A stretch of DNA of 64,000 nt from the IMG/VR virus record IMGVR_UViG_2913167280_000003, positions 27,299 to 91,298 of that record. The stretch is one strand, 5' to 3'. The DNA is from a virus. Its lineage: Duplodnaviria > Heunggongvirae > Uroviricota > Caudoviricetes. Below, one piece after another: positions 62,828 to 63,419 of this stretch. Position 1 is the stretch's first letter. Every line of letters starts with the position of its first letter. The notes below the pieces were generated by a model. The model saw nothing but the letters and a program-made list of their open reading frames with translations. It searched no databases and was not told the origin of the DNA. Made by a program: the position numbers and the translations under genes.

Positions 62828-62853
62828 GGCGGCCATTAGGCCGCCTTTTTTTT
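62828..62853 (+). terminator. perfect intrinsic terminator-like hairpin GGCGGCC-ATTA-GGCCGCC followed by T8, 5 nt before the ref ATG
   Basis: 7-bp GC stem, 4-nt loop, TTTTTTTT. Confidence 0.65.
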
Positions 62854-62858
62854 GCCAT

Positions 62859-63419
62859 ATGAAAACAATCGAACAAAAACTTGAACAGCGCCGCGAGTGG
62901 CAGAAGGCAGCCAGAGAACGAGCGATCGCTCGGCAACGGGAAAAGTTGGCTGACCCCGCCTGGCGCGAATCGCAATATCAGAAAATGCGGGATGCCATCG
63001 ACCGCCGTATCGCTAAACAGAAAGAACGCCCACCAGCCAGCAAAACGCGGAAAATCGCGGTAAAAATAAAATCTCGTGGCTTGAAGGGACGAACACCGAC
63101 GGCGGAGGAACGGCGCATAGCCAATGCTCTTGGCGCTCTCCCCTGCATTGCCTGCTATATGCATGGAGTAATATCTGAAGAGGTGTCTCTGCACCACATC
63201 TCCGGTCGTACCGCGCCGGGTTGTCACAAAAAGCAATTGCCACTTTGTAGATGGCACCACCAGCATGCAGCACCGGCTGAAGTAAGAGAAAAATACCCCT
63301 GGCTGGTCCCTGTTCATGCCGATGGCGTGATTGGCGGCAAGAAAGAATTCACCTTGCAGAACAAGTCAGAGATGGAGTTGCTGGCTGACGCCTATGAGAT
63401 GGCAAATTTATTATTCTAA
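62859..63419 (+). CDS. ref: Ref, recombination enhancement function (HNH-type nuclease, 186 aa)
   Basis: Starts MKTIEQKLEQRREWQKAARERAIARQ; C-terminal Cys/His motif (CIACYMHG...HHISG...CRWHH); position after cre. Confidence 0.8.
   Translation: MKTIEQKLEQRREWQKAARERAIARQREKLADPAWRESQYQKMRDAIDRRIAKQKERPPASKTRKIAVKIKSRGLKGRTPTAEERRIANALGALPCIACYMHGVISEEVSLHHISGRTAPGCHKKQLPLCRWHHQHAAPAEVREKYPWLVPVHADGVIGGKKEFTLQNKSEMELLADAYEMANLLF

Follow-up and report, generated by a model that had tools for sequence, protein, structure and literature searches.

A conserved, predicted Rho-independent terminator between the C1-controlled promoter and the start codon of ref in a P1-like phage-plasmid

Introduction

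Windle, Laufer and Hays (1988, J Bacteriol 170:4881) placed ref, the phage P1 gene for a RecA-dependent HNH nuclease, under "attenuator-antiterminator control" in the title of their paper, as that title is cited in PMC4713147. The regulatory region of P1 ref is deposited in GenBank as M23246/M27041. The annotation of P1 in AF234172 puts three features 5' of the gene: a sigma-70 promoter (P2ref), the operator Oref, which overlaps P2ref, and a second, predicted promoter (P1ref). Oref is described there as a monovalent operator, controlled by the C1 repressor and controlling ref. Here, the corresponding leader is examined in a stretch of 64,000 nucleotides (nt) of viral DNA (IMG/VR record IMGVR_UViG_2913167280_000003, positions 27,299 to 91,298), which is called the window throughout. 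The subject is a hairpin with a run of eight T's (T8) that stands between the C1-controlled promoter and the start codon of ref. Positions are those of the window.

Further background comes from expression studies in P1. Ronayne et al. (2016; PMC4713147) found that ref's 5' regulatory region is bound by H-NS, and a CGATAAA binding motif for H-NS was reported within it. When C1 was inactivated, ref mRNA rose 73-fold; the induced level was lower than those of ssb, dmt, and kilA, and its peak came slightly later. In the same work, ref was harmful to lysogens, and its presence cut lysogenisation 40-fold. As to antitermination, Piya et al. (PMC10695390) state that no P1 protein has been experimentally shown to act in this process, and they point, with reference to the P1 genome paper and to Windle et al., to strong indications that P1 encodes antiterminators. 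The main text of a paper on P1vir RNA-seq (PMC8201110) does not contain the whole words "ref," "terminator," or "cre."

The window, judged by its sequence, is a P1-like phage-plasmid that carries cre, c8, and ref. A megablast of 62300-63500 matched punaviruses, among them P1, P7, RCS47, and SJ46, at 90-95% identity; c8 and ref are annotated in them. The operator and the extended -10 of the P1 ref region both have homologs in the window, and its Ref is 93-97% identical to the proteins of the P1 group. The segment 62799-62879, which takes in the hairpin, the T8, a short spacer, and ref as far as its seventh codon (21 nt), is 100% identical to P1; its flanks carry substitutions. The window differs from P1 by four leader substitutions at 62792-62798. 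It also differs just 5' of Oref, where 62716-62743 has diverged and lacks the CGATAAA motif, and at the stop codon of ref, where the homology ends and mat does not follow. In P1 itself, the AF234172 annotation has no terminator feature at the hairpin.

The reading proposed here is that a Rho-independent terminator, located in ref's 5' untranslated leader, attenuates both C1-controlled transcription and upstream read-through into the gene. Its probability is put at roughly four in five. The element is, of course, already known, as a P1 ref attenuator has been on record since 1988 and the element in the window is identical to P1 in sequence. Thus, nothing categorically new is claimed. The additions of the present analysis are modest. 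The leader terminator appears to be a conserved hallmark of C1-controlled ref in the P1-like phage-plasmids of Escherichia, Salmonella, Klebsiella, and Pantoea, and it is such a hallmark despite complete turnover of the stem sequence. No RNA-encoded antiterminator is found in the leader. Last, the terminator survives the swap of ref for a convergent icd-ant cassette.

The terminator and the promoters before it

The features of the region are collected in Table 1. A first-pass annotation, made from the letters alone, had described a perfect hairpin GGCGGCC-ATTA-GGCCGCC plus T8 before the ref ATG, and had placed it between an operator/promoter and that ATG. Direct reading confirms the coordinates of the hairpin and its placement, with the operator at 62744-62760, the -10 hexamer at 62762-62767, and the ATG at 62859.

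Table 1. Features of the cre-c8-ref region, in window coordinates
Feature	Position	Strand	Description or basis
Cre recombinase open reading frame (ORF), 343 amino acids (aa)	61222-62253	+	ORF list
c8 (lysogeny establishment) homolog	62304-62615	+	Alignment with P1 and CP104510 annotation
Hairpin 4 nt past the c8 stop	62619-62639	-	-15.4 kcal/mol; T-run on minus strand only
C1 repressor operator ATTGCTCTAATTTGTTG, Oref homolog	62744-62760	+	Read directly; aligns with P1 Oref
Extended -10 TGATATAAT of C1-controlled P2ref	62759-62767	+	Homologous to annotated P1 P2ref -10
Untranslated leader 5' of the hairpin	62774-62827	+	No ATG, no Shine-Dalgarno (SD) sequence
Predicted inner promoter P1ref	62799-62826	+	AF234172, "predicted sigma 70 promoter P1ref"
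P1ref -35, TTGCCA	62799-62804	+	Followed by 16-nt spacer
P1ref -10, TG-n-CATCAT	62821-62826	+	TG before the -10
5' arm GGCGGCC	62828-62834	+	Read from sequence
Loop ATTA	62835-62838	+	Read from sequence
3' arm GGCCGCC	62839-62845	+	Read from sequence
Terminator hairpin GGCGGCC-ATTA-GGCCGCC	62828-62845	+	7 G-C pairs, 4-nt loop, -15.0 kcal/mol
T8 tract, the terminator's U-tail	62846-62853	+	Read from sequence
Spacer GCCAT, 5 nt, without SD	62854-62858	+	Read from sequence
ref, RecA-dependent HNH nuclease, 186 aa, start ATG	62859-63419	+	ORF list; 3PLW alignment

In isolation, the hairpin folds with an energy of -15.0 kcal/mol. Once it is transcribed, its stem forms with a probability of at least 0.99 (5' ends tested, 62337 to 62776). 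A terminator scan of 60000-64000 ranks it first, with G-C pairs at 7 of 7 positions. Under a strict definition (a perfect stem of at least 7 base pairs, at least 6 of them G-C, and a run of at least T7), it is the sole match on both strands of the 64-kb window; the same definition gave 0 matches in 30 dinucleotide shuffles. The T8 begins on the base directly after the stem, on the strand that carries cre, c8, and ref, and on the minus strand no T-run follows the stem. Thus, the hairpin and its T8 have every sequence feature of an intrinsic (Rho-independent) terminator. An origin of the hairpin in a repeat family or a mobile element was considered and rejected, because its 18-mer is single-copy in the window, even when 3 mismatches are allowed.

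The operator and promoter that the first-pass annotation had put upstream are also real, being present in the sequence and homologous to Oref and P2ref of P1. The left half of the operator, ATTGCTCTAAT, fits the C1 consensus at 11/11 positions, and the operator overlaps the extended -10. From the spacing, P2ref is predicted to start transcription near 62774 (+/-2).

The inner promoter P1ref was recovered independently in a consensus promoter scan, and its hexamers are kept across the P1 group, ref-less elements included. Transcripts from this promoter would meet the hairpin in a different state. RNAs that start at 62831-62836, which is 5-10 nt past the P1ref -10, fold with 0 to -7.6 kcal/mol, not -15. 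Because the predicted start falls inside the 5' arm, transcripts from P1ref could not form the full terminator.

Conservation in P1-like and in divergent loci

P1-like loci were taken from IMG/VR by a pattern whose anchor was the leader and not the hairpin. Together with loci fetched earlier, these make 97 loci with the hairpin, of which 83 have ref following (ref+) and 14 are ref-less. The stem is broken in none of the 97. The only changes in it are from C to T, each of which turns a G-C pair into a G.U pair; the 5' arm reads GGCGGCT in locus L062, and the 3' arm reads GGCCGCT in L101 and L024 and GGCCGTT in L054. The loop is ATTA in 71 loci, ATCA in 10, GAAA in 9, and TAAA in 7. The T-run ranges from T6 to T10, with T7 to T10 in the ref+ loci and T6 in the ref-less ones.

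A deeper set was built by a search for homologs of Ref, followed by inspection of loci whose proteins are 45-67% identical. Here, wherever an examined ref is preceded by a C1-type operator (ATTGCTCTAAT... or TTTGCTCTAATAAATTT), its leader contains a terminator, with a different stem; the proteins of these loci are 59-67% identical. In L106 (Klebsiella aerogenes), the element reads GACGGTC-TACG-GACCGTC-T7. In L107, L193, L195, and L196 (Salmonella and relatives), it reads GACGGTC-TTCG-GACCGTC with T5 to T8, and L194 has GACGGTC-TTCG-GGCCGTC, with one U.G pair. L108/L273 (Pantoea alvi) has GCCGCC-TCCG-GGCGGC-T7. In L108, 101 nt separate the terminator from the called start of ref, which implies that proximity to the ATG is not conserved, while the terminator is. 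Where ref stands in other contexts (L109-L111, L274-L290), no leader terminator was found, and several of these genes have an ordinary SD. These contexts are a different palindromic operator (TGTTAGAAAATCAATTTTGATTTTCTAACA), a position directly after an ERF recombinase gene, or other genes.

An in-register alignment of 11 distinct hairpins has standard pairs in 98.7% of its cells, and 3 of the 7 pairs are changed on both sides (G-C to A-U, C-G to U-A, and G-C to C-G). As a control, the 3' partners were slid out of register, and pairing fell to 17-70%. Ten whole leaders (six of the GGCGGCC type and four of the GACGGTC type) were also folded de novo with RNAalifold. The terminator helix was the only helix predicted, with compensatory changes at two pairs. 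The rest of the leader sequence diverges freely between clades.

Other searches for relatives reached less far. A protein search of genome contigs gave 3 loci, all close or fragmentary; an alignment-based viral scan returned relatives at 91-97% only; a P0052 scan gave no match.

One short motif does recur. The sequence CTCC(Y)TGAC lies directly 5' of the terminator in leaders that otherwise diverge, namely those of L106, L107, L193-L196, and L108, and at 62813-62821 in the window. It resembles an anti-SD sequence, and it contains TTGAC.

The ref-less relatives

The 14 P1-like elements without ref (for example pE2855-2, L002; an E. albertii plasmid, L003; and L004) retain the operator, the promoter, the leader, and the hairpin. 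In these, the T6 is followed by 2 nt and then by the TGA stop codon of ant, a convergent gene for a KilAC-domain antirepressor, which icd precedes in the cassette. The convergent icd and KilAC-antirepressor genes replace ref at 1501-2942 in L002, at 1501-2940 in L003, and in L004. In this mosaicism, the junction lies exactly at the ref-leader terminator; as far as the sequences tell, the recombination junctions fall just past it.

The strand that encodes the antirepressor has no U-tail at the hairpin, which thus stays a plus-strand terminator in the ref-less loci. As it is retained without ref, the terminator is presumably useful in its own right, stopping transcription from cre-c8 and from the ref promoter, Pref.

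Where ref begins

Residues 1-185 of Ref in the window align to residues 1-185 of chain A of 3PLW (E = 2e-116), and the Pfam family PF16786 is found in homologs of Ref. The solved P1 Ref in 3PLW has MKTIEQK as its N-terminus, and this sets the start of ref at ATG 62859.

The first-pass annotation had allowed that Ref might instead begin at an upstream in-frame ATG at 62799, in which case the hairpin would lie inside the coding sequence. The codon at 62799 is TTG. In the window, this TTG shares the frame of ref; in 19 of the 83 ref+ loci, it does not. The 83 loci have T-runs of T7, T8, T9, or T10 and a spacer that reads GCCAT, GACCAT, or ACCTT; the frame of the TTG is not conserved because of 1-nt insertions and deletions in these two places. 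As this TTG is the sole candidate start, the leader is not coding. A longer Ref with the hairpin inside it is excluded by these observations and by the N-terminus in 3PLW.

The same annotation saw no room for a normal ribosome-binding site, and the energetics agree. In the 13 nt from the stem to the ATG (UUUUUUUUGCCAU), the best duplex with the anti-SD sequence has +2.2 kcal/mol; over positions -20 to -1 of ref, the best has -1.5 kcal/mol. Over 62846-62871, bases are unpaired with a mean probability of about 0.55. Initiation at AUG 62859 is probably helped, in place of an SD, by the unstructured U-rich tract upstream and by the A-rich start of the coding sequence, and the T8 may therefore double as a U-rich translation enhancer. 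The general basis for such a mode is SD-independent, S1-assisted initiation. In the clade with the GACGGTC stem, the spacer is longer, at 13-15 nt, and holds GGG or GGGA, a possible weak SD. Thus, the close abutment of the terminator to the ATG is a trait of the P1 group and not a conserved need.

A search for an antiterminator in the leader RNA

Attenuators of the trp or riboswitch type work through a second RNA helix that competes with the terminator, and such a helix was sought with constrained folds at 5' ends from 62337 to 62776. Freeing the 3' arm of the terminator costs 9.6-15.5 kcal/mol in these folds. The sole candidate competitor pairs GCCGC (62771-62775) with the GCGGC of the 5' arm, at a cost of 9.6 kcal/mol. 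This GCCGC sits at or 5' of the likely start of transcription. Nor does it track with ref: it is lost in the ref+ locus L084 and altered in the ref+ loci L026, L032, L060, and L062, and it is kept in the ref-less loci L038 and L045. On these three counts (cost, position, and distribution), the GCCGC:GCGGC antiterminator was rejected.

Consensus folding of the leader gave no conserved structure besides the terminator. No Rfam family for the leader came from a permissive scan of 62300-63500 or from a scan of the window at gathering thresholds. The best match to the leader scored 23.8 bits where its family's gathering score is 50, and sub-threshold matches such as rseX, MicX, and suhB reflect a generic resemblance in hairpin plus U-tail. 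An attenuator built on a leader peptide or on alternative structures thus fails on the antiterminator helix, on the leader ORF, and on a curated RNA family, and the element is not an attenuator of the trp or riboswitch type. With no antiterminator encoded in the RNA, the routes left for expression of ref are leakiness, a protein or other factor acting in trans, or a promoter that bypasses the stem.

Transcription arriving from upstream

Apart from the ref-leader hairpin, the stretch from the c8 stop (62615) to ref holds a single strong hairpin, the one at 62619-62639, which has no U-tail on the plus strand. This makes the ref-leader hairpin the first strong plus-strand terminator downstream of cre-c8. 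Because the T-run at 62619-62639 is on the minus strand only, transcripts of cre-c8 probably run on to the ref leader. The terminator there is probably, from its position, also the operon-end terminator of cre-c8, insulating ref in lysogens. A terminator shared by upstream transcripts was the second suggestion of the first-pass annotation, and it agrees with this picture.

The minus-strand terminator at 62619-62639 faces the ref side, and no minus-strand gene is evident between this hairpin and ref. In the ref-less relatives, it is the first canonical terminator that the convergent icd-ant transcripts would meet.

The proposed mechanism and its alternatives

Under the proposed attenuation, transcripts from P2ref, which C1 represses, would start near 62774, and RNA polymerase reading through from cre-c8 would reach the hairpin as well. 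Most transcripts would stop at about 62850-62853, where the -15 kcal/mol stem is followed by U8. The terminated RNA would then be about 80 nt long and would end 6-9 nt before the ref ATG. Ref, a nuclease that is toxic when expressed, would be made only from the fraction that reads through, possibly with the aid of some phage or host function in lytic growth. Transcripts from P1ref may add to this expression. Translation would begin at ATG 62859 without an SD, probably by way of the U-rich and A-rich surroundings described above.

Attenuation or read-through control of ref had been suggested by the first-pass annotation. The suggestion draws support from the features of the terminator, from the identity with P1, and from the conservation of position in divergent C1-controlled loci. 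The 73-fold rise after inactivation of C1, lower and later than for ssb, dmt, and kilA, is in keeping with a terminator that leaks or is relieved, placed after a C1-controlled promoter. The attenuator of 1988 is equated, by inference, with the present hairpin because this is the sole strong plus-strand terminator between P2ref and the ATG, and because M23246 ends at P1 coordinate 2063, which is the last base of the stem. Tight control in several layers (C1, Bof, H-NS, and the attenuator) is sensible for a protein that harms the host and lowers lysogenisation.

Several points weigh against attenuation as proposed. The equation with the 1988 attenuator goes by the title of that paper. Termination cannot be absolute, as ref is induced 73-fold in vivo. 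The role of P1ref as a promoter that bypasses the stem is hypothetical, the promoter being a prediction, and P1ref cannot be recognised in the clade with the GACGGTC stem. A matter of ascertainment is that the P1-type loci were gathered through a motif in the leader and are for the most part close relatives. Finally, the three stem types may have arisen by replacement, independently of one another, and not by the evolution of one helix. This would weaken the argument from covariation, not the argument from position; either way, the comparison of sequences indicates that selection keeps a terminator here.

The most serious competitor makes insulation the main job of the element. Here, the terminator would end constitutive transcripts of cre-c8 (and of Pref) and so keep the toxic ref off in lysogens, in which polymerases coming from upstream would not be halted by C1 bound at Oref; in the ref-less relatives, it would keep sense transcription from running into the convergent icd-ant operon. 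No other strong plus-strand terminator lies between cre-c8 and ref, the terminator is retained in the 14 ref-less elements exactly at the end of the convergent ant, and Ref harms lysogens, with the 40-fold loss of lysogenisation already cited (PMC4713147). However, a pure insulator would serve equally well 5' of Pref, and the terminator is 3' of the promoter in every examined C1-controlled ref locus. Because it sits downstream of Pref, transcripts from Pref are attenuated too. Insulation as the main job is a possible reading, less likely than not; as a second function of the same element, it is probably correct and is compatible with attenuation. An autonomous module controlled by C1, comprising operator, promoter, leader, and terminator, with a position that has outlasted its sequence and with retention after the replacement of ref, is a less likely description, whether the module is taken to provide a cis site for a P1 antitermination function (with the recurring CTCC(Y)TGAC as a candidate recognition element) or an RNA of about 80 nt acting in trans. 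Less likely still is the narrower view that the locus is a self-contained, C1-controlled gene for such a trans-acting RNA of about 80 nt, to which the adjacency of ref is secondary. The 14 ref-less elements do keep the whole cassette, small RNAs that bind Hfq typically end in a strong intrinsic terminator whose U-tail is long, and P1 already has C1-controlled small RNAs in c4 and in the annotated dicF-like region. Retention in the ref-less elements is, however, explained equally well by a recombination junction just past a useful terminator. Further, the score of 23.8 bits against 50 leaves the leader without an Rfam family at threshold, neither conserved structure nor covariation was seen outside the terminator in a leader that diverges between clades, and no target has been identified.

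Very improbable is the notion that the hairpin causes no appreciable termination and is instead a stabilising or standby structure of the mRNA, or part of a longer Ref begun at the TTG. Between the stem and the ATG there are indeed 13 nt, which puts the stem at the margin of a ribosome footprint, the TTG is in frame in the window, and ref is well induced in vivo. A perfect G-C stem of 7 base pairs with an immediate U8 is, however, a canonical strong terminator, and in L108 the terminator is far from the called start (101 nt). The longer protein is contradicted by the shifted frame of the TTG in 19 of 83 loci and by the solved Ref, which has 186 aa and starts with MKTIEQK. Attenuation of ref by the leader terminator thus stays the preferred account. 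The ref leader is an obvious substrate on which to assay for a P1 antiterminator.

Other features of the window

Upstream of ref, the start codon of c8 (62304-62306) is ATA in the window, where P1 and NZ_CP104510 have ATG. The first canonical in-frame start is GTG 62337, which would give a protein of 92 aa rather than 104 aa. From this, c8 may be truncated at its N-terminus, poorly translated, or inactive here. In addition, 62271-62287, 5' of c8, reads ATTGCTCTAATCATTCG, a perfect left half of a C1 operator, where P1 has ATTGCTATAAT, its predicted Pc8 -10. On this evidence, c8 may be under C1 control in this element.

Downstream, the homology to P1 ends near 63406, within an Omat-like C1 operator (63404-63426) that overlaps the stop codon of ref. 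An ORF of 165 aa (63488-63985) follows ref in place of mat. The plasmid NZ_CP104510, which has an identical 271-bp segment of the ref leader (62690-62960), carries a hypothetical gene, an IS3 transposase gene, and a DUF4145 gene between ref and mat, and a SIR2-family gene after mat. The interval from ref to mat looks like an accessory island inserted at the operator.

A perfect C1 operator, ATTGCTCTAATAAATTT, lies at 30013 and is overlapped by an inverted second site. A terminator follows at 30207-30226, about 190 nt after this operator, and the whole arrangement corresponds to the region annotated in P1 as "dicF-like region" after dmt. The interval 30013-30226 is a second unit in the window that runs from an operator through a short RNA to a terminator; Rfam gave no family for it at gathering score. 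Rfam matches above the gathering score were found elsewhere. At 10377-10583, these are the c4 antisense RNA and its a1/b1 targets, in the immI region behind an operator at 10300. At 14032-14206, the match is the sok antitoxin RNA, which indicates an addiction module of the hok/sok type.

Relation to other attenuators and antitermination systems

The attenuators of trp, his, and pyrBI, the T-box, and the riboswitches have in common with the ref leader an intrinsic terminator placed between the promoter and the first codon. The ref leader differs from this group in lacking a leader ORF, as it has no ATG, no SD, and no conserved frame. It also lacks a competing antiterminator helix and an Rfam family.

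The N/nut system of lambda and the put system of HK022 resemble the ref locus in another way. There, too, a terminator stands early in a lytic unit controlled by a repressor, and a phage antitermination function is suspected for P1 as well (PMC10695390). However, no conserved element like boxA/boxB or put was seen in the ref leader, no P1 protein has been identified as an antitermination factor (PMC10695390), and the ref unit consists of a single accessory gene.

A similar architecture is found within P1 itself, in the c4 and dicF-like units. Unlike these, the ref leader matches no Rfam family, lacks a conserved fold besides the terminator, and has no known target. In what they share, the c4 and dicF-like units, both present elsewhere in the window, are built as the ref leader is built: a C1 operator and promoter, a short non-coding transcript, and an intrinsic terminator.

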